A stretch of DNA of 64,000 nucleotides, taken from Rhynchobatus australiae. Its lineage: Eukaryota. Below, one piece after another: positions 1,884 to 43,944 of the stretch. Under the pieces are notes generated by a model. The model made no database searches. It had not been told where the DNA came from and worked only from the letters and a program-made list of their open reading frames with translations. The position numbers were made by a program, and so were the translations under genes. The DNA is taken from NCBI GenBank assembly GCA_034780895.1, contig JAUZTB010000066.1:22816963-22880962 (forward strand), in the 5' to 3' direction. Numbering within the stretch: position 1 is the stretch's first letter; each line of letters begins with the position of its first letter.

Positions 1884-2268
1884 ATAAAGAAACAGAAAAT
1901 AGAGGGAAAGCTCAGCCAGAGTCCCTCCCCAATGACAGAGAAAGTAGCCAGGTCAATGATCCTCTGTTGGAATTGGAAATGTTGGAAATAAACCACTTTT
2001 AAATACAGACTTTGTGACAAAGGACAGGGAAAGAATGAAAGGGAGGGTCTGCAGGAGAGTTGAGGGCAGGAGAGATTAAATGGCAAAAGTGATGATGCTT
2101 TAAAATTAAAGGAAGGTGACAATAACTGGCTCACCCCCTTGCTTAATAGCTCTTCATCTTCTGATGAAAGATCTTCAACCTGAAATGTTAACACTACAGA
2201 TGCTGCCTGTCCTGCTGAGTGAATCTAGCAAGTTACGAGTCTATTTCAAATGTCTAGCTTCCGTTTTT
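1884..2268. mobile_element. Penelope-derived fold-back element with degenerate hammerhead core
   Basis: Left arm aaacagaaaatagagggaaagctcagc; right arm ctgatgaaagatcttcaacctgaaatgttaac..cagatgctgcctgtcctgctgagt; purine-rich spacer; same family as 7491, 11968, 25108. Confidence 0.65.
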
Positions 2269-5525: not shown

Positions 5526-7039
5526 TCTCATTGACTGTTGTTATTTTTCAAAAGAGTTAAACATTTATTATCTGAATAAACATTTTATTGTGTAAGAATG
5601 ATAGAAACATAGAAATTCCCAGACTGGGAGGAGGTTGTTTCGCCCATTGTCTGGGGGAAATCTCTTGAAGTAACCATGCTAAACATACAGTATTTGGGAA
5701 AAGCTGGGCAGTTTGCTAGTTGCCACCCATTTTCAAGTCTAGGGTTTGGTTTCTGATCCAGACTGGCTAGAAATTGGATTTCATTCATTTTTTTGTTGTG
5801 CTGGATTTTTCCCCCAAAAATCAAAGAAATCATTGTTGTGGTTTATTTCCTTTAAGGAGCATTAAACCCAGACTTATATGTTCATTGGTTGCAGCAGCTG
5901 CCTCCCTCACACTACCTTCTGGGAAGTAGGTCAGTGTCACTGAAGGGATCTTTCCATGGCAGGCCCCTATGAAGATGAGGGAAAAGTGGAGGTGGGGGGG
6001 GGNNNNNNNNNNNNNNNNAGTAACTGTAGCAGAGTGGAGGAAGGATTTAATGTTGCCAAGACCTGGTGCTGCGATTGACTCCAATGTGCTATCAGACCCA
6101 TCAGGTCACTCCATAACAATCATTGGAGCCACGGTGCTGCTCATCTGCAGGTGAAGGAAAATGCATCCAATTTCTGGACATTTGAGTTAAACGGAGCTTA
6201 GGGAACATAAATGACATTTTGCAATCCCTTAAGGGTTTCTAATGGCCTGCAGTCTAAGAACATGGACAGATTAATCTCCGGATTCCACTGAGTGAATTCA
6301 AATCTTTAAATAACACCGCATTTTTTTAATGAATAGGATTTTAGGAACTTTTGAATATTAAGAAATAAAGGACCTGAAAGGGGAATTTTTAAAAATTTTA
6401 ACTATAGGGAAAAGCTAATATTTGATTCTTACTCCATTTTTCTTTTTTTACCTAATACTTGAGAACTAAATCTAATTCTTCCCCTGTCAGTTTCCTAAGG
6501 CAATGATTAGATCTAGGTGTCAGTATGTGTATTTGTAGATAGAACACTATTACTGAACACTGTGATATGGAAGGACAGAGTAGCTGAATATTATTTTTAT
6601 GATTCAATAATAGATAATAATAATTGTATTTTCATCGGTTAACCTCAGCCCCATTCATTTACCCAGGAATAAGAGTCTGACTTCCCTTCTCTGTTTATCT
6701 CTGTCATATACTGAAATGGTGAAGCTGTGCATCAGGCCCTGTGGCTGGGTTGATTGCAGTGTCTTAGTGATGTTTCTCACAGTTCACGAACAAAACAAAA
6801 TAGATTAAAAACATTGCATGAGATAACCTGGTGGTTCTGATGGTTAGTCTGCCAATATGCTGCTCCAAAGGAGAGAATCCAGATTTGTCTTCCTTAGAAC
6901 CCTTGGCCAAGGAAACACTTTCAGTTAACAGTTGTGTGTTTAACCTCTTACTGACCATTCTATTATTGGTTCCAGATCCTCAGACTACATCATTGTGTAG
7001 TTTAGGTTAAGGTACCATAGGCTTCAAACCTTTTTCTGG

Positions 7040-7490
7040 GAGGCAAATAGACAGCAATACCCTGGAGAATATGGACCATTTACTACATCTCAGGAGCCAC
7101 CTCTTGGTGAAGGAAGACATTGATGGTGAAATTCACCAATGCTTTTAGTGTGCCATCACAGCCTTTGTTTGGGAGAGGAGGAGGAGGATATTTGAAGGTC
7201 AAGACCTTAGACCCAGCACAAAACTCATGCCCTATGGAGCATCGATGATCACTGCCGTCCTATATGCTTCTGAGACCTGGACTAGCTGCAGCAGGCATTT
7301 CAAGGAACTGACAAAATACCACAACACTGTTCTGGCAAAACACTCCAGGCCCAGCATCAGAGTCCTCTCCCCAGCTGACATCCCCAGCAATGCCCCTCTA
7401 GTTGCACTCAGCTGCCTACGATCTGCAGGCTATGTAGTTCATTTGCCTAATACCAGTAGTTCATTTGCCTAATACCAGACTGCAAAGTTA
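7040..7490 (+). mobile_element. RTE-clade LINE fragment, 5' part (decayed RT C-terminal region)
   Basis: Translates as LENMDHLLHLRSHL..DIDGEIHQ, then ITAVLYASETWT..RHFKELTKYH..LRSAGYVVHLP, with stops and frameshifts. Confidence 0.85.
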
Positions 7491-7816
7491 GGCAACAAAT
7501 AATCAGCTGGAGGAACTCAGCAGGTTGAGCAGTATCTATGGAAGAAAAGGAATTGTCCACATTTCAGGTCAAAATCTTGCATCAGGGCTCCTTCCTCAGT
7601 TCACCAATCACCTCAGATTCCTGTCTCACCACTCCTCTTCTCCCTTTTATACTGGCCATCACTCTTCTGCACTCCCAGTCCTGATGCAGGGTCTCGACCT
7701 GAAATGTCTACAGTTCCCCTCCCCCTCCCCACCAACAGATGCGGCACGACCTTCTGAGTTCCTCCAGCAGCTTGTTTGTTGGTCCACATTCCAGCATCTG
7801 CAGTCTCTTGTGTCTC
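7491..7816. mobile_element. Penelope-derived fold-back element inserted in the RTE; hammerhead-like core in each arm
   Basis: ~95-bp imperfect inverted arms (7493-7589 / 7677-7781), including a perfect 15-mer gctggaggaactcag 7506-7520 / ctgagttcctccagc 7754-7768. Confidence 0.8.
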
Positions 7817-8050
7817 CAAAAATAGGCATTCTAATGTAAGTTCTGTGATGGGAAGAGATTACCAGGCAGGTAGAGGAAAAGACTCAAGGCCGAGCTCAAA
7901 ATTTCCTTGAGAAAAGACAATATCCCTAGTCCCTTCTGGAAATCCCTGGCACATAACTGCTCAAAATGGCAAAGGAGCATTCAGATGGCTTTGAGAACCT
8001 GAAGTTCATGTGTCGGAAGCATACAGAAGTAGTGGAAGGAGCGCACCACT
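7817..8050 (+). mobile_element. RTE-clade LINE fragment, 3' continuation
   Basis: gggaagagattaccaggcaggtagaggaaaagactcaag translates GKRLPGR*RKRLK, followed by WKSLAHNCSKW; continues the RTE ORF after the insert. Confidence 0.8.
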
Positions 8051-8489
8051 TCACGAGCTACACCACTTGGCCACAACTTCTGTCCCATTTGGGAAGGAAG
8101 GATTAGTGTGGGGATCACAGATGATCCAGATGATGTGTATTTATGTATTTTTAAGCAGGAGTAGAAACAATGGCTGACATCACTGCTTCTTAGCCAATGG
8201 TGCTAAGGCCCATTATAGTAAGCCAACCACCACCCCGACTGATCAACCTTCTCAGCACAAGCTGTGATGTTGGGTAGGCAACTTCATGGCTTGTTTACTC
8301 ATTTCTATTTTGGTGAGTAAACTGGTAACTCACCCATTGGAGAAAATATTTAAAACATGTTCAGAGCACTGATGGATGGAGGACTGTGTATTACTGTTCT
8401 AACTGAGGATATTTTACAATACTAGCCCAAAAATCACTGAGAGCCATTGTGTTCAGATTTGTCTTTTGGAAAGTGCAGCTTCAATTCAA

Positions 8490-8745
8490 GCATAGACTTA
8501 AGGGAGAAGGTTAGGAGAGTAGATAAGAGAAAAAAAAATCACCCAGAGTGTGTTGGGGTCTGGAATTCATTGCCTGAAAGAAACCCTCATCATATTTACT
8601 ATAAATTGTACTGGATGGGCTTGATGGGACCTTCAGGGCTATGGACTTGGTGCTGGAGGGTGGGATTAGGTTGGGGAACTCTTATTTAACTGGCATAGAC
8701 CTGACGGTCTGAATTGCCCTCTGTGTGTACATCTGTTGCAATTCT
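8490..8745 (+). mobile_element. CR1 LINE 3' end
   Basis: cacccagagtgtgttggggtctggaattcattgcctgaaag (TQ..VGVWNSLPE) followed by a CR1-type UTR. Confidence 0.75.
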
Positions 8746-9514
8746 AAGCAGAGGTTTACATTTGACAGAAATTAGTCTTTAAATCACATATCTCTTTGCT
8801 GTCTTTGGGCATTGGGTTTTCACAGCCAACCCAGAGATTGTTAAAATTCAAAAATAAGTCATTCTTAGATTTAACAGCAAAACTATTGCCTGCTGAAGAT
8901 AAAAAGCTGACAAGCTACCTGTGAATGAGTAATGATGTCTCCAGTTTTGCTGACTGGGTTCAAGTTAGTTGACAAGAAAAAGAAGTCAGAATTATTGACT
9001 GCATGTAAATACAGGCATTGTAATGTTCATATTTTTTTCAGTTCAGCCAGGATGGGTTGAATCAATCAGCCCATCAATAAAGCACAGACAAGTTTAAAGA
9101 GAGTGCTCTTGAATTTTTATTTTTAAAAAAGCACGATTGACAGAGGTGCCTAGATTAATATTTTTCTATTTTTTTCATGCTCAGCAAAAGCACATTAATG
9201 CTGCTTTGATATATTCAACATTGAAAAGAAACATTGAGAGGTAAAAATTGCTTCAGTTCACATTCATTAGTCTGCTGAAACTTTCCCCTGGAAAAATAAT
9301 GCCCTATTGAAATGCAGTGGGCCTGTTGACTTCTTAGAGGAGGAATTTGTTTTTTTGTAATCATTAATAAACAGCAAAGCTAAAACTATCGGTTATCCAG
9401 AACTAGCGCGTGAGAGATGTGCCACACACCGTCAGTTTGTTTCCTCCTCTGAAATTCCTCCTTAGTTGATGTGAAATCATTAGCTTGCTGAGGACCAATT
9501 TACTGGTTGTCCCC

Positions 9515-10445: not shown

Positions 10446-10785
10446 ACCAGAAGGAGCAAATTAATGTCGTACTGCCTCGTTGTACAATGATGTATCTCCT
10501 CAATTCCCCTGATACTTTCTTTGATGAAATTTGTCATCAAAGATAAAATGTTAAAATATTCCTAAGTGCTACCAAACTGCCATGCTTGTTGATTAACCCA
10601 TTCCTCTGTGCCTGCCACCACCTCTGGCACATGACTCAGAGGTCTTCTTTACCATATGGGTTAGAGTGAAGGCTTTGAGCAGTGGGATCACTCTAGGTAA
10701 AGCGATAACACCTTGCATCCATAGAGTAGTTTAATATTCGAAGGCTACTTGCCTGACATGAACCTGGAGCCTGCAGGAGAAAGCT

Positions 10786-11010
10786 TTTCTTTTTCAATCT
10801 TTTTATTAGTTTCCAAATTAATGCAGATTAATATATAACATCAATGATTGTACATGTAATACAAAGAGATCAAGAGAATAATCACGGCATAGATAATCAT
10901 AAAGAATAATAAAATATAAAAAAAATCTTTAGGTCTCACAATCTCTTAGTAGATGAATATAGTATAACAGAAAGGAAAGAAAAAGATTTATTGTATATAT
11001 AAAAGAAAAG
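10786..11010 (-). mobile_element. L1 3' UTR, copy 1 (runs into a gap)
   Basis: Closely similar to 12311-12530; begins ttttctttttcaatctttttatt (aataaa and A-rich tail on minus). Confidence 0.85.
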
Positions 11011-11950: not shown

Positions 11951-11967
11951 ATAATCGCCCATAAGGA

Positions 11968-12310
11968 ATTAAAACAGAAAATGTTGAAAATTCTCAGCAG
12001 ATCAGGTAGTATCGAAGGAGAGAGGAACATTCGAGCCTTATAGACTCAACATTGAATTCGGCAATTACAGATAATCAGCTTTTTCCACTTTGTATTTTGC
12101 ATATCCATTATTCTTACAGGTTCTTCTACTCTTCCAGTAGTTTCAGATTTCACTTATCTTCCCTTATTTGTGGCTCCCCAGATGTACCTTTTGTCATTAA
12201 CTTCCTCTTTCAGCACCTTTGTGCCATTCAGTCTCTCCTGTCTTAAATCCTGTTTTATCTCTAAATTCTCCCAGTTCTGAAGAAAAGGCCATTGATGTAA
12301 AACTTTAACT
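11968..12310. mobile_element. Penelope-derived fold-back element, right arm truncated by L1
   Basis: Left arm aaaacagaaaatgttgaaaattctcagcagatcaggtagtatc; right arm cagttctgaagaaaaggccattgatgtaaaactttaact abuts the L1 tail. Confidence 0.65.
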
Positions 12311-12975
12311 TTCTTTTCTTTTTCAATCTTTTTATTAGTTTCCAAATTAGTACAGATTAATATATAACATCGATGATTGTACATGTAATACAAAGAGAAC
12401 AATTATGGCATAGGTAATCATCAAGAATAATAAAATATAAAGAAAATCTTTAGATCTCACGATCTCTTAGTAAATGAATATAGTATAAAAGAAAGGAAAG
12501 AAAAAGATTTATTGCATATATAAAAGAAAAGAAAAAGAATCCCCAAATCAATAAAAAATTGTAAATAACATAACAGACCAAACAATAAAGAAAATTTCAA
12601 GAAAAAGAGACAAAAACAAAAAAAAACTGGACTGAAATTTCTCAGTGGAAACAGAGCAATTATATCGTCAATTCCGTTCCTCTAAATTGAAAAGTTATTG
12701 AAAAGGGATCTATATCATATGAAAGTATTGAATAAATGGACTCCAAATATCTTCAAATTTAAGCGAAGGATCAACAGTATCACTTCTAATTTTTTCCAAG
12801 TTTAAACATGAGAAAACCATTGAAAAGTAGTAGGGGGTATTGGATCCTTCCATTTAAGCAAGATGGATTGTTTGGCCATTAATTTGAAAAACGCAATCAT
12901 ACGGTAAGCGGAAACAGATAAATGGCCAGACTCTATCCTTGGTAATCCAAAGATTGCAGTGATAGGATGAGGTTG
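12311..12975 (-). mobile_element. 5'-truncated fish-type L1 (ORF2 C-terminus and 3' UTR), copy 2
   Basis: ORF 12802..13077(-) includes QPHPITAIFGLP..RMIAFFKLMAKQSILLKWKDPIPPTTFQWFS; a shifted frame continues LNLEKIR..FEDIWSPFIQYF. Confidence 0.88.
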
Positions 12976-25107: not shown

Positions 25108-25260
25108 CAAACAAAAACAGAAAATGATGGAAACATTCATCAGGTCAGGCAGCATCTGTGGAGAGAAACAGTCAGTGTTTCAGGTTCCTTCTTCAGGATC
25201 TGAGCTGCTGAGTGTTTTCAGTGTTTTCTGTTTATGTTTCAGATTTCCAGCGTTTTTTTA
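25108..25260. mobile_element. Minimal Penelope-derived fold-back with a minus-strand hammerhead core
   Basis: aaacagaaaatgatggaaacattcatcaggtcag .. ctgagctgctgagtgttttcagtgttttctgttt; minus-strand ctgaaga-agg-aa-cct-gaaa at 25178-25196. Confidence 0.75.
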
Positions 25261-35327: not shown

Positions 35328-37320
35328 AAATGCTGAACTAGGAGGTGAAAGTGCCTTAAAGGAATTTAGACACACAGGGGAGCTTAAAAAGCTGAGAAGT
35401 GCCTGGTTAAATGTGGGCTTTTTGATGCAGGACTGATGGTGACAACTAGAAGAAGGTTGGTGCCTGAACAAAGGGAATCATTGACAATGTAGGTAAACAC
35501 GGAGTGTAGCACTGGTCAGAAATTGGCTGGATGCAAGTCAGAGGGACAGGGTGTGAGTCTCAAAGAAAACAAGAGCGAAGCTGCAGAGTGCTGGGAGTTG
35601 GGTTAGGATTAGGGGGAGCTAGCAGCACAATATAAACTTGAAAGCAATTTTAAGGTAGGTTCAGCAACCTTTGAAAAAACCCACTTCCTTTCGATTGCCC
35701 CACATCAAACCCTACCTCCTATGGCAGCACAAGGTACTTCATAATGCTATTCCCCCTCCATTCCTTTCCCTTTCTATATGCAATTAGATTATGCTAGTCT
35801 CCATGTTTCATAATAATTTCTTGGTGTATGTTACATTATGGCTGGTTTGCTTGCCACTACAATGATCCAGCAAAGGCACCAGGGGGACATTTCAGTCAAC
35901 TGTCTCTGTTTATAAGTCAGTGAATGGGCTTGATTATTATCTGTATTGAATTTCATGGTGCAGACCTTTTGCACCTGTCATTGAGAGAACTAATGTCAGT
36001 AGACAGAGACATCATTTTGTGGTTTGTTTTTAGTGCAGATGGAAGTGACAGTGTAATATAGACCACCTACTGACCCCAAATTACAAGAGCAGATCTAAAA
36101 AAGGCCTGTGTATGTTATCAGACTAGCATTTCATACATGAGAAGTCATATCATAGGGTGGCAAATGTTTGCTGGAAATTAAACACTTCTGTAGAGTGTCA
36201 TAAAACCTCTGACTGATCATTAATCACCCTTCAGTATCTATTACCTCAACTTCTCTATCATAAAGCCTATGGATAACTCAGGTCATGACACTCATAGATT
36301 CTGTGCAATCACGCAGCTGTGCTGTGTCCACCCCTTGAGTCCTGAGCAGACTAGATAACATTTAATAATAATTTTGGGGTCACAGTGGTCTCTTTAATGT
36401 ACCTATTTGAATAATGTGATTATTCAAATGTGTTATGCATCTTAACATTTATGTAACCCCTCCCACATCATTGACATTATTTCTTCTGGCACTCACCCCA
36501 GTCTGAGTCATGGCTGAATTCTTGGGAGGGTTGAGGCTCAATTGGATTGAGCAACATTTCTCTATCCTTTATTTTTGTTACATTCTGATGATTGAATATT
36601 CCTTTGCCTCATGTACCTGATCCTCTTAGGCAGGTTCTTATCCAAGAGGAAGCAGTCAGAACCATTCAGAGCAGCTTTCAAACCAAGCTAGTTTTAGTTC
36701 AGATCTTCATCTGTTGTGAGCTCTTTGACATTGCAGGATTGCCTCGAGATATGAACTGAAGCTCGAGACAATGGTAGAGTGTAATTCTGAATGTACTTGT
36801 CTGAACTTACAGCTCCAGTTGAGTTCTCCTACTGATATTATTTTGGAAGCTTAGAGTACCATTGGAGTTACTGACCAATCTGTGGTTGTTTCATTTGTTA
36901 TTTCAGCTGAGAGGAGAGTGAAAGTTGAGTTCATTGTGCACCAGCCACATGTGGTACTCTTCCTCACAGACCACACTACCATCACTGCCCCAACCCCTCT
37001 TCACCAACCACTTCACAGATCATGCAATAAGATCTCAAGCTTCCAAGTACATAGATTTAAACATAAGGAAATTCAAAATCCAAGCCTTTAAACCATGGGT
37101 AGTTTGAATATCTTTCAACAAACTTGATAATATTGACGTTAATACTCTTAAATAAAAAGGAAGCTGTGGTTGATGTCCAGATGGCAGCACTTATTCCACC
37201 AATATTAATGTTTACAATCACACTCACAATGTTTATCTAAGGTAAGCAAAATCTAATCATTTTACTTTCCCTTATCTTGTGAATGGCTCCTCATTCTGAA
37301 GCTTCATGACCTTTATGACA

Positions 37321-37845
37321 TAGGAAGGATGTGGAAGCGTTGGAAAAGGTGCAGAGGAGAATTACCAAGATGCTGCCTGGTTTAGAGAGTGTGCATTATG
37401 AAGAGCGACTAAGGGAGCTAGGGCTTTACTCTGTGGAGAGAAGGAGGATGAGAGGAGACATGATAGAGGTGTACAAAATATTAAGAGCAATAGATAGAGT
37501 AGACAGCCAGCATCTCTTTCCCGAGGCACCCATTCTCAATACAAGTGGGCATGGGTTTAAAGTAATGAGTGGGAAGTTCAAGGGGGATATCAGAGGAAGG
37601 TTTTTGTTTTACCCAGAGAGTGACTGGGGCATGGAATGCACTGCCTGGGATGGTGGTGGAGGTGGAGGCAGGTACATTGGTCAAATTCAAGATATTGCTA
37701 GATAAGCATATGGAGGAATTTAAAATAGAGGGATATGTGGGAGGAAGGGGTTAGAAAGTCTTAGGTGTGGTTTAAAGGTTGGAACGGCATTGTGGGCCGA
37801 AGGGCCTGTATTATGCTGTACTGTTCTATGTTCTATGATTCTATG
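37321..37845 (+). mobile_element. Relatively young 5'-truncated CR1 with probable TSD
   Basis: ORF EALEKVQRRITKMLPGLE..LRELGLYSVERRRMRGDMIEVYKI; ttctatg tail repeats; flanks atgacctttatgaca (37306) / atgaccttctaatgaca (37843). Confidence 0.95.
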
Positions 37846-39349: not shown

Positions 39350-39520
39350 GAAATAAAAACAGAAGCTGCACAGCAGGTCGATCAGCATCTCAAACAGAAA
39401 AGAACTTTAATATTTCATAGGCTTTCCAGGGGTTCTGGACAAGTATTATTCCTGCAACCTTAACATTTCTTTCACTTTTCTGCTCTGATCGAGTTGCATT
39501 TCCAGCATCTTTTGTTTGTA
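39350..39520. mobile_element. Old Penelope-derived fold-back
   Basis: aaataaaaacagaagctgcacagcaggtcgatcagcatct .. ctgatcgagttgcatttccagcatcttttgtttg. Confidence 0.55.
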
Positions 39521-41709: not shown

Positions 41710-42392
41710 TATTGGTTTATTATTGTCACTTGTACCAAGGTACAGTGAAAAACTTATCTTGCATACCGATTGTACAGGTCAGTTCATTGCACAATGTGGT
41801 TACATTGAGTCAGTACAGAGTGCATTGATGTAGTACAGGTAAAAACAACAACAGTACAGCGTAAAGTGTCACAGCTACAGAGAAAGTGCAGTGCAATAAG
41901 GTGCAAGGTCACAACAAGATAGATCGTGAAGTCATTGTCCCTCTCATTGTATAAAGGAACCTTTCAATAGTCTTATCACAGTGGGGTAGAAGCTGTCCTT
42001 AAGACTGGTGGTACGTGCCCTCAGTCTCCTGTATTTTCTACCCGATGGAAGAGGAGAGAAGAGAGAATGTCCTGAGTGGGTGGGGTCTTTGATTATGCTG
42101 GCTGCTTCGCCAAGAAAACGAGAGGTAAAGACAGAATTCAAGGAGGGGAGGCTGGTGTCTGTGATGTGCTGGGCTGTGTCCACAACTCTCTGCAGTTTCT
42201 TGTGGTCCTGGGCAGNNNNNNNNNNNNNNNNNNNNNNNNNNNNNNNNNNNNNNNNNNNNNNNNNNNNNNNNNNNNNNNNNNNNNNNNNNNNNNNNNNNNN
42301 NNNNNNNNNNNNNNNGTCTGGGAGGCTGGAGTTGATGTGTGCCATGACCAGCCTCTCAAAGCACTTCATGATGGTGGATGTCAGAGCCACTG
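41710..42392 (-). mobile_element. Rex1/Babar LINE, 5'-truncated, RT core hidden in a gap
   Basis: ALTSTIMKCFERLVMAHINSSLP and KKLQRVVDTAQHIT..IIKDPTHSGHSLFSPLPSGRKYRRLRARTTSLKDSFYP. Confidence 0.92.
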
Positions 42393-43944
42393 ATGCCCAG
42401 ATAAGTTGAAGAAAATATTACGTTCAAGTTGATGGATGTCACTACTGGAGGCAATCGAGATAATCATATTCTCCACTGTATCTGCATCATTCAACTTTGC
42501 GTTCGTGGAACAGGTTCTAATTGCCCAACAGAATGGCTTAATCCTGTTCTCTGAGTGACATATCCCACTGGTCCATTGTGACACTTCCACTTCCCAAATC
42601 AGCCTCTAAGTGATGAATTACAGGCAGCATATGGATTCTCGCCCACAGTTAACTGGATTGAACCTAAATCTAATCATATTTTGATGGAAGAAAAAGTGAA
42701 AAATGAGTGATAGTTCCTCTACCAGCTTCCATTCTTAAAATCATCTGCAAGAGACGTGCACAGTGAATGTGAGGAAACTTTCACCCTGTGTTGGAAAGCG
42801 CAATTTAAGTAGAATTGCATTAATTACAATGCTTCTGAGTAAACAGTGTTGGAGCAGTTTTATACCCTTAGGTCAAAATGTTTCAGGTAAAGTTGTGGGC
42901 AGACTGCACTTAATTGGTGAATGTAATAATACAAGTTTTAAATGACTTTAAAACTTTTGACTGAGGTAGATGAGAAATTTGGCTTTTACCACACAGAGCA
43001 ACTGCTGCCCAGCTGTTCTTGGTGTTGTCCCACCTCCTACAACAAAGGAACTGAAGAGCTGCAGCACTGGTTGAAATGTCCATGTTTTACAGGCTGAACA
43101 AGCGTAATGCTCCATGTCATGTGTCACATCTGCTCATTGTAGGGAAGGTTCGCTGTTGAATTTTCTCGCGCAGCCTATCATGCTGCAATGCCAATGTGAA
43201 CAATGGAAATATGAAAAGGATGTAACTGTACAAGATATGAACACAAATTATGAGTGTTGAATTTTCAATACCAAATGTGGACAGGGAAGCAAATGGAAAT
43301 ATAATGCTGACATTCTGNNNNNNNNNNNNNNNNNNNNNNNNNNNNNNNNNNNNNNNNNNNNNNNNNNNNNNNNNNNNNNNNNNNNNNNNNNNNNNNNNNN
43401 NNNNNNNNNNNNNNNNNGACATTCTGATTCATAAACCATTTATTGCATGGGGCAATAATGTATCTGGATGGGCTCCAGTACCAGGCATTTTCCCTGAAAT
43501 TAGACATTTTTAGCAACATATTGTGATTATTTCCAGACTTTAAGAACAGAAGAATGCAGGTGAACACAATTGAAAGATCGACAGAGTAGGAAACATTTGT
43601 AATATTAAATGGTGGGTTTTCCTTTCTTCTTTTGAGATAAGACTTCAGTGGAACTCTTTCAGAAACTGCAAAATGAAATGTCCTGCTTCTGATGGCTTGT
43701 GCCAGTCTCTAAAACTGTATGTTCCTTATCGCCTCTCACGGTGCTTTAAAGGCTTTCTTCTTTTGTGTTTCTTTCCTGATAGTTTTCTTTCCTCAAGAAG
43801 CAATGCACAGGTCTGAAAGTTTAATGAAATGGGCCTTAATATCAAGGTTGCTGCATTGCGAAGGTGATCAATTTAAACTTTATTTGTGCCTAGCTTTGGT
43901 CAGGCCTCGCCAGGAGAATGAGGTTCAGTTTATACACCATACTC

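Follow-up and report, generated by a model that had tools for sequence, protein, structure and literature searches.

A decayed, probably Penelope-like insertion with an inverted pLTR and a hammerhead-like motif in each arm in Rhynchobatus australiae

Anatomy of the insertion and its surroundings

Near the left end of the window, by which we mean the whole 64,000-nucleotide stretch of Rhynchobatus australiae DNA analyzed here, a decayed host repeat is interrupted by a fold-back insertion. The features of the insertion and of its host repeat are as follows.

7040–7482, plus strand: left part of the decayed host repeat, recognized by raised contig depth and a joint from 7229 to 7842 in three of four runs
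7483–7494, plus strand: left TSD copy of about 12 bp, the last three letters of which also fit the end of the inverted arm
7492–7589, minus strand: inverted, 5′-truncated pLTR copy without a tail, the counterpart of about 7677–7782
7558–7585, minus strand: hammerhead-like core of the left arm, from the motif read-out
7590–7592, no strand: seam joining the inverted arm to the sense body, judged from the depth at 7591 and apparently private to this insertion
7593–7676, plus strand: pyrimidine-rich spacer of 84 nt, family sequence upstream of the hammerhead-like motif, cut at about 7593
7676–7713, plus strand: minimal type I hammerhead-like motif of the right arm, with core 7681–7708, from the motif read-out
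7677–7782, plus strand: sense pLTR part mirrored by the left arm, from the arm alignment
7783–7818, plus strand: tail of about 36 nt, on the right arm only, reaching the family 3′ end
7817–7828, plus strand: right TSD copy, the first two letters of which also fit the family end
7829–8055, plus strand: right part of the decayed host repeat, from the contig alignment

An earlier note on this DNA, made from the letters alone, had described a fold-back with an inverted repeat of about 95 bp around a pyrimidine-rich spacer, with one hammerhead-like core on each strand, and this description was confirmed, with small corrections. The arms (7493–7589 and 7677–7781) align with 72% identity over 105 columns (E = 1.3e-10); compared in register, they are identical in 76 of 97 columns and are further separated by an 8-nt indel, and transitions make up 14 of the 21 differences. 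The spacer is 76% pyrimidine (C+T) over 7593–7676, and the cores lie at 7681–7708 on the plus strand and at 7585–7558 on the minus strand. Both strands fold into one long hairpin, with z-scores of −7.6 (plus) and −4.8 (minus), and none of 100 shuffles was as stable. The outer end of the left arm was set using the majority letter at 7782, and the right arm continues for about 36 nt past the inverted part, to 7816–7819. At its 3′ end the spacer consists of a pyrimidine tract followed by CAG (7676–7678), which, to judge from the letters, may resemble a 3′ splice site.

The two TSD copies are identical at 10 of 12 positions (12 of 15 when counted from 7480 and 7814), a score equaled by 18 of 2000 random site pairs. 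Within 6500–9000 only an inverted pair, and no tandem units, was seen. The statement that the element contains no ORF held in so far as no coding evidence was found, but a stop-free frame of 115 codons does span the element (7492–7839); this frame has no Pfam match. A perfect 22-bp tandem duplication lies just left of the insertion, at 7434–7477, and is missing from one contig of run X5.

Because of the joint from 7229 to 7842, both flanks of the insertion are assigned to one decayed repeat (7040–8055), which we take to be an RTE-type LINE and for which no Pfam match under E 0.04 was found. Contigs from two organisms, D and E, enter the element 20–25 letters from the unique flank with about 8–9% differences, suggesting that the insertion is old and shared with these organisms, the overlap being below our 31-letter bridging rule.

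Hammerhead-like motifs of this copy

In the right arm, stem I (7676–7680 with 7709–7713) forms three of five pairs, its closing C·U pair being broken beside the core. The core (7681–7687) carries C9 and is followed by a bulged A (7688), by a stem II with five of five pairs and a closing G·U, and by GAAA, U15.2 and a GUC site, which places the predicted cut between 7708 and 7709. The left arm likewise has C9, GAAA and U15.2; its stem II is closed by A10.1–U11.1 and contains an A·C mismatch, stem I forms two of five pairs, and position 17 is a G, so that the site reads GUG and is not NUH. The A9 of the core C3 U4 G5 A6 N7 G8 A9 is thus replaced by C9 in both arms; changes at A9 lower hammerhead activity. 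As the strict hammerhead core given by Perreault et al. (PMC3088659) includes A9, we do not class this copy as a hammerhead ribozyme.

Apart from position 9, the architecture is that of the minimal type I hammerheads published for Penelope-like elements (PLEs), as the earlier note had recognized. The published form, CUGANGA-H-G..C-GAAA-N-palindrome-NUH (PMC4209133), shares with the motif described here the type I order, the bulged base present between positions 9 and 10.1, the short stem I, the lack of a stem III loop, the C15.2–G16.2 pair (here probable at the level of the family) and a pyrimidine-rich 5′ flank, while C9 and the further breaks of this copy set the two apart. Dual minimal hammerheads on opposite strands, 100–700 bp apart, are also described in that source.

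Since the loose pattern CUGA.GN-x-GAAA has 25 matches in the window, the motif by itself is not beyond chance; what gives it weight is the repeat family together with the element's anatomy. The Rfam check proposed in the earlier note, run on this copy, gave no hammerhead family at the gathering score and only three chance matches to snoRNAs (E 0.8–2.6). A model built from 78 coral-like motifs (R1, see below) scored the right arm at 12 bits (E 1, sixth of 20 matches) and gave no match to the left arm up to E 10. Neither Rfam nor this model, then, scores the motifs above chance.

In the predicted folds of whole-element RNA from either strand, pairing between the core and the opposite arm has a probability of 1.0, and formation of stem II a probability of 0.0; even for the right arm alone, the predicted probability of stem II is only 0.03. 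Read-through RNA of either strand is accordingly modeled as locking the core in an arm-to-arm duplex. In addition, two cores on opposite strands cannot make a cis dimer, which is presumed to be required by minimal hammerheads. The suggestion that RNA made from either strand would contain a ribozyme therefore stands as far as the letters go, but not for the predicted RNA, in which the core is fully paired. Both motifs are predicted to be inert in this copy, in agreement with the earlier suggestion that it may be inactive: each core departs from the consensus and would, by prediction, be masked in the hairpin.

The repeat family in contigs and in the window

To place this copy within its family, we relied on contigs of four of 11 listed runs aligned to 7000–8300 and on those of two runs aligned to 7560–7735. 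The family is matched by thousands of contigs across the four runs. The 176-nt stretch 7560–7735 is matched by 4,306 contigs in X1 and 6,761 in X5, and summed depth in X1 reaches about 6e5 at 7748–7835 versus 5–9 in the unique flanks; the family is very large, although this depth is not a copy number. In the 5′ direction, X1 depth declines to 1.4e5 (7680–7691), 3e4 (7668–7673), 3e3–9e3 over the spacer, 1.1e3 (7590–7595) and about 110–120 over the left arm, the coverage of which is lowered by its divergence. At 7591 the depth is 6.9 in X1, which corresponds to this copy's own contig, and 19.3 in X5, and many contigs start aligning at 7593, with other or unaligned letters before that point. Behind 7816–7819, loose ends with unrelated flanks of low agreement accumulate in all four runs, and we therefore place the 3′ end of the family there.

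Among the joints listed, the inversion joints of other copies lead from 7525, 7532 or 7537 to 7676–7679 and from 7585–7591 to 7673–7681, each in one to four contigs per run; eight of the nine joints listed for the 7560–7735 alignment are of the inversion type at other points, with one or two contigs each. From the pattern of depth and joints we conclude that the spacer belongs to the family sequence and is cut at about 7593, that the seam looks private to this copy, and that inversion is recurrent with variable breakpoints. The depth gradient and the listed joints also show that copies are often 5′-truncated and that their inversion points differ.

Given the private-looking seam and the inversion of other copies elsewhere, the hairpin is not a fixed unit, which bears directly on the proposal of the earlier note that it represents a non-autonomous, retrozyme-like fold-back family. 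Such a dedicated mini-element, copied as a unit by PLE enzymes and carrying a working ribozyme on each strand, would agree with the single TSD that bounds the unit and with three to four other window copies that look inverted too; PLE ends can mobilize sequence in trans (PMC3846280), and non-LTR retrozymes derived from pLTRs are present in one chondrichthyan (bioRxiv 10.64898/2026.07.22.740005). However, the X1 depth at the seam is that of this copy's own contig, eight of the nine listed joints invert elsewhere, the arrangement is not tandem, and the cores, both of which deviate from the consensus, are predicted to be masked in read-through RNA. We consequently consider the proposal very improbable.

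It is still less probable that the hairpin arose secondarily, from two independent solo-pLTR insertions or from a subsequent duplication or inversion event. The divergence of the arms is 22%, with the 8-nt indel in addition, and neighboring copies of so abundant a family are common, as such an origin would have it. Nevertheless, one TSD surrounds both arms with no host sequence between them, C9, U11.1 and U15.2 are common to both arms, 14 of the 21 differences are transitions, as decay predicts, and inverted joints are common among other copies.

Two further observations concern the joints. In all four runs, some contigs join the tail end (7818) to the start of the inverted arm (7506), with the 3′ ends facing, which is the opposite of the arrangement in this copy. 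Furthermore, the 5′ edge of stem I (7673–7681), beside the pyrimidine tract and CAG, holds a cluster of inversion joints and loose 5′ starts from other copies, which is in part an artefact of aligning across 7675, where this copy has a private letter. In D. virilis, the Penelope intron has its end at this edge of stem I (PMC4209133). We considered whether the 5′ starts piled up at 7673–7681 could mark a ribozyme cut and rejected this, as they lie about 30 nt upstream of the predicted cut and are partly due to the letter at 7675.

Contigs anchored downstream read CCC-GAAA-CGUC-GAC in X11 and show CpG-decayed forms of it in X1, X3 and X5 (agreement 0.56–0.60), from which we conclude that the 3′ half of the family hammerhead was probably intact originally; the loose-end consensus of the family has CGUC in two of the four runs and UGUC in the other two. 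Using phmmer, we found two predicted proteins that match only the repeat part of the element's frame, and since one of them is from the sawfish Pristis pectinata, the family can be placed in cartilaginous fish. The sawfish gene model (XP_051885155.1, our P0086) holds about 30 codons of the repeat, which may have been exonised or may reflect an error of gene prediction. When longer proteins carrying the element's frame were sought, none was found; the downstream family pattern had no matches in viral and metagenome contigs, and the core pattern had none in viral contigs.

Searching the window with a profile of the two arms, for which the reversed control gave a best E of 0.6, we identified the following related copies.

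2161–2234, plus strand: older single pLTR arm (E 3.8e-8 with the two-arm profile), with A9 and with U-A at stem I 2.1–1.1
11965–12312, plus strand: probable older relative, weakly matched, with a short inverted arm at 11965–12032 (minus strand), a peptide resembling the end of an ORF and a hammerhead remnant at 12277
25124–25197, minus strand: decayed arm (E 1.3e-6) with A9; a short, probably inverted piece (25201–25260) lies immediately before it
39366–39417, minus strand: strongly decayed arm (E 0.008) with a probable inverted partner near 39440–39490

The inverted piece at 25201–25260 is weak (15 of 200 shuffles were equally good), while none of 200 shuffles equaled the partner near 39440–39490. 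A fold-back of the copy at 2161 through the purine-rich stretch 1860–2145 was not established, 43 of 200 shuffles doing as well against the element and 80 of 200 against the neighboring arm. The inverted arm at 11965–12032 has an E of 0.001 with a four-arm profile and of 0.79 with the two-arm profile. In this 12-kb relative, a peptide like the terminal PLE motif lies in a frame ending at 12071 and is followed by a 203-nt UTR before the hammerhead remnant, which model R1 scores at E 0.73; the E of the peptide is 2.5 window-wide and about 0.005 when conditioned, after the fact, on its place. The 12-kb relative is suggestive as the best lead in the window to an autonomous parent.

Two of the older window copies switch stem I 2.1–1.1 from C-G to U-A, giving one covarying pair. 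This switch is among the observations that speak against a MITE-like element or fold-back DNA transposon with a chance resemblance to a hammerhead in its terminal inverted repeats. The element is indeed short, non-coding and very abundant, with long inverted repeats and a TSD, but its ends are asymmetric, with a tail on one arm only, where such a transposon would be a fixed unit with symmetric TIRs; moreover, single arms occur alone, and the family shows a gradient of 5′ truncation and variable inversion points. We give this origin hardly any credence.

As regards the remainder of the window, 10784–11010 and 12313–12531 form a 227-bp duplication of 90% identity, beside a 100-N gap and directly after the 12-kb element, and may be an assembly duplicate. 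There are 14 N gaps, several of them within repeats. Reading-frame remnants at 1311–1658, 37319–37705 and 41944–42417 are presumably fragments of CR1- and L2/Rex-type LINEs.

Probable Penelope-like origin, proposed mode of insertion and the C9 core

The layout of the insertion, with an inverted, 5′-truncated pLTR by its 5′ end, a tail of about 36 nt at one end and a short TSD, matches the published PLE layout, bearing out the connection to Penelope drawn in the earlier note. In the inverted-pLTR insertions of EN+ PLEs (Pen2a_Av/Pen2_Av, PMC3846280; scheme in PMC8557442), a 5′-truncated pLTR is likewise inverted head to head, with a tail at one end and a TSD around the insert; here, in contrast, no ORF is left, and the TSD is about 12 bp rather than 8–10 bp. 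An inverted pLTR with a 31-bp tail and a TSD of 9–10 bp is described in PMC3846280, and tails of 30–40 bp at one end in PMC8557442. The Poseidon element PAc of Anolis (PMC11167929) is described with a hammerhead about 100 nt before two tail-separated ends; its ORF starts inside the hammerhead, and its enzyme cuts and extends both strands.

Non-LTR retrozymes (PMC7229834; bioRxiv 10.64898/2026.07.22.740005) are, like this element, non-coding, hammerhead-bearing, related to pLTRs and a few hundred bp long. They are, however, arranged in head-to-tail tandems with mostly canonical type I hammerheads and yield circular RNA, whereas we found a single head-to-head inversion with a minimal, broken motif; as it is not tandem, the element is not a retrozyme. 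LTR retrozymes differ in having a type III hammerhead in two direct LTRs and a 4-bp TSD, as opposed to a type I motif, inverted arms and a TSD of about 12 bp.

The element is most likely a PLE insertion, truncated and decayed, in which the inverted pLTR, the tail and the TSD are canonical, and both its layout and its motif class are already published; the host group of the PLE is probably sharks or rays. Our preferred reading, which we hold with considerable confidence, is that the 3′ end of a Penelope-like retroelement with an endonuclease was inserted here in a single, old event, that the fold-back was likely made at insertion, and that the hammerheads are, by prediction, inert passengers.

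The tie of the family to a PLE ORF is no more than suggestive. Neither an RT nor a GIY-YIG ORF was found in this truncated copy with Pfam and tblastn, six PLE ORF pieces gave nothing below E 0.1 in a tblastn search of the window, a PLE C-terminal profile reached a best E of 0.97 there (1.9 for the reversed control), and protein searches with the element returned no ORF-linked record.

For comparison, the core pattern with A or C at position 9 was matched in at least 123 metagenome stretches, and 122 loci with 128 matches were used. PLE-ORF-like sequence, GIY-YIG included, is present in 40 of the 122 loci listed, mostly in sense orientation and ending 40–170 nt upstream; the named relatives of these ORFs are mostly coral proteins, and RT or GIY-YIG domains are found in several relatives. 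Among the 127 matches listed, stem I, which was not part of the pattern, is paired at positions 1 to 5 in 116, 117, 114, 90 and 66, and in 78 distinct rows it covaries to a degree reached by none of 500 shuffles, with 89.6% of positions paired versus at most 49.5% in slid controls. An inverted partner lies within 1.5 kb, at widely varying distances, in 16 of the 56 listed matches with more than 600 nt upstream, pairs with two intact cores being counted twice. In light of these partners, one hammerhead per strand in a fold-back appears to be an ordinary PLE product. The coral-like loci serve as an analogy only, because no DNA likeness between them and the element was seen at E 0.01, this family had served to design the pattern, and model R1 is weak on the right arm and misses the left. 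Six of these loci (L034, L040, L090, L100, L077 and L113, of which L100 resembles L034) are young fold-backs with an intact core on both arms and arms that are 89–96% identical, and would be better material for the study of seams than this copy.

An insertion of this form might have arisen as follows. The GIY-YIG nuclease of an autonomous PLE would nick both strands about 12 nt apart, and a first cDNA of about 225 nt would be reverse transcribed from the tail end of the element RNA as far as 7593. The second arm, of about 98 nt, might result from a second priming at the inner tail boundary, on a second RNA or on the same RNA used twice, or from a snap-back of the first cDNA near 7677, after which the cDNA ends would be joined at the seam. 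Classic L1 twin priming is a single-pass process and, since the arms overlap in the template, does not fit. The steps of two-site priming are modeled on the in vitro scheme of PMC11167929, in which the PLE protein cuts and extends both strands and two RT start sites bound the tail; self-priming has been proposed for PLE inversions (PMC3846280). In an active parent, the minimal hammerhead would have a weak cleaving activity on the element RNA, either in dimeric form or assisted by a protein. In this copy the cores are decayed and would be masked by the hairpin.

The one point that deserves further work is the C9 core, which is apparently a family-level feature. The earlier note had attributed C9 to decay of this copy, a view that we revise, as many other copies share it. 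C9 is clearly not private, because at 7687 no letter other than C reaches 25% at a depth of 1.4e5, in a contig alignment biased towards this copy's letters, and because one protein (P0087) starts with MQG, which implies C9; it is probably a subfamily trait. The older window copies at 2161, 25196 and 12277 carry A9. In the PLE motif alignment of Cervera and de la Peña (PMC4209133), which covers no cartilaginous fish, all 56 motifs have A9 and none has C9. Among the metagenome core-pattern matches listed, 124 of 128 have A9 and four have C9, none of the latter PLE-like; these four are located in long ORFs of bacterial appearance or have no stem I, and they were dropped before alignment. A literature search, with most subscription papers, Repbase and Dfam outside its reach, did not turn up any account of shark or ray PLE hammerheads or fold-backs, any C9 core or any paper on A9 changes and hammerhead activity.

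A bolder reading, which we regard as rather unlikely, is that a hyper-abundant Penelope subfamily of sharks and rays spread from a master with CUGAUG-C-A, the core of which has kept its cleavage activity, in a dimer or together with the element's protein, and would thus be a natural variant absent from the published PLE alignment; the two arm ends would then record both RT start sites known in vitro.

One decayed copy carries little weight by itself, and the family matters somewhat more. For PLE inversion, its thousands of seams could be used to test the two-primer model against the snap-back model. In vitro, PAc inserts without any need for cleavage (PMC11167929), which fits a spread of PLEs without cleavage. 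If C9 was present in the master, either the hammerhead core tolerates C9, or PLEs can spread massively without cleavage.
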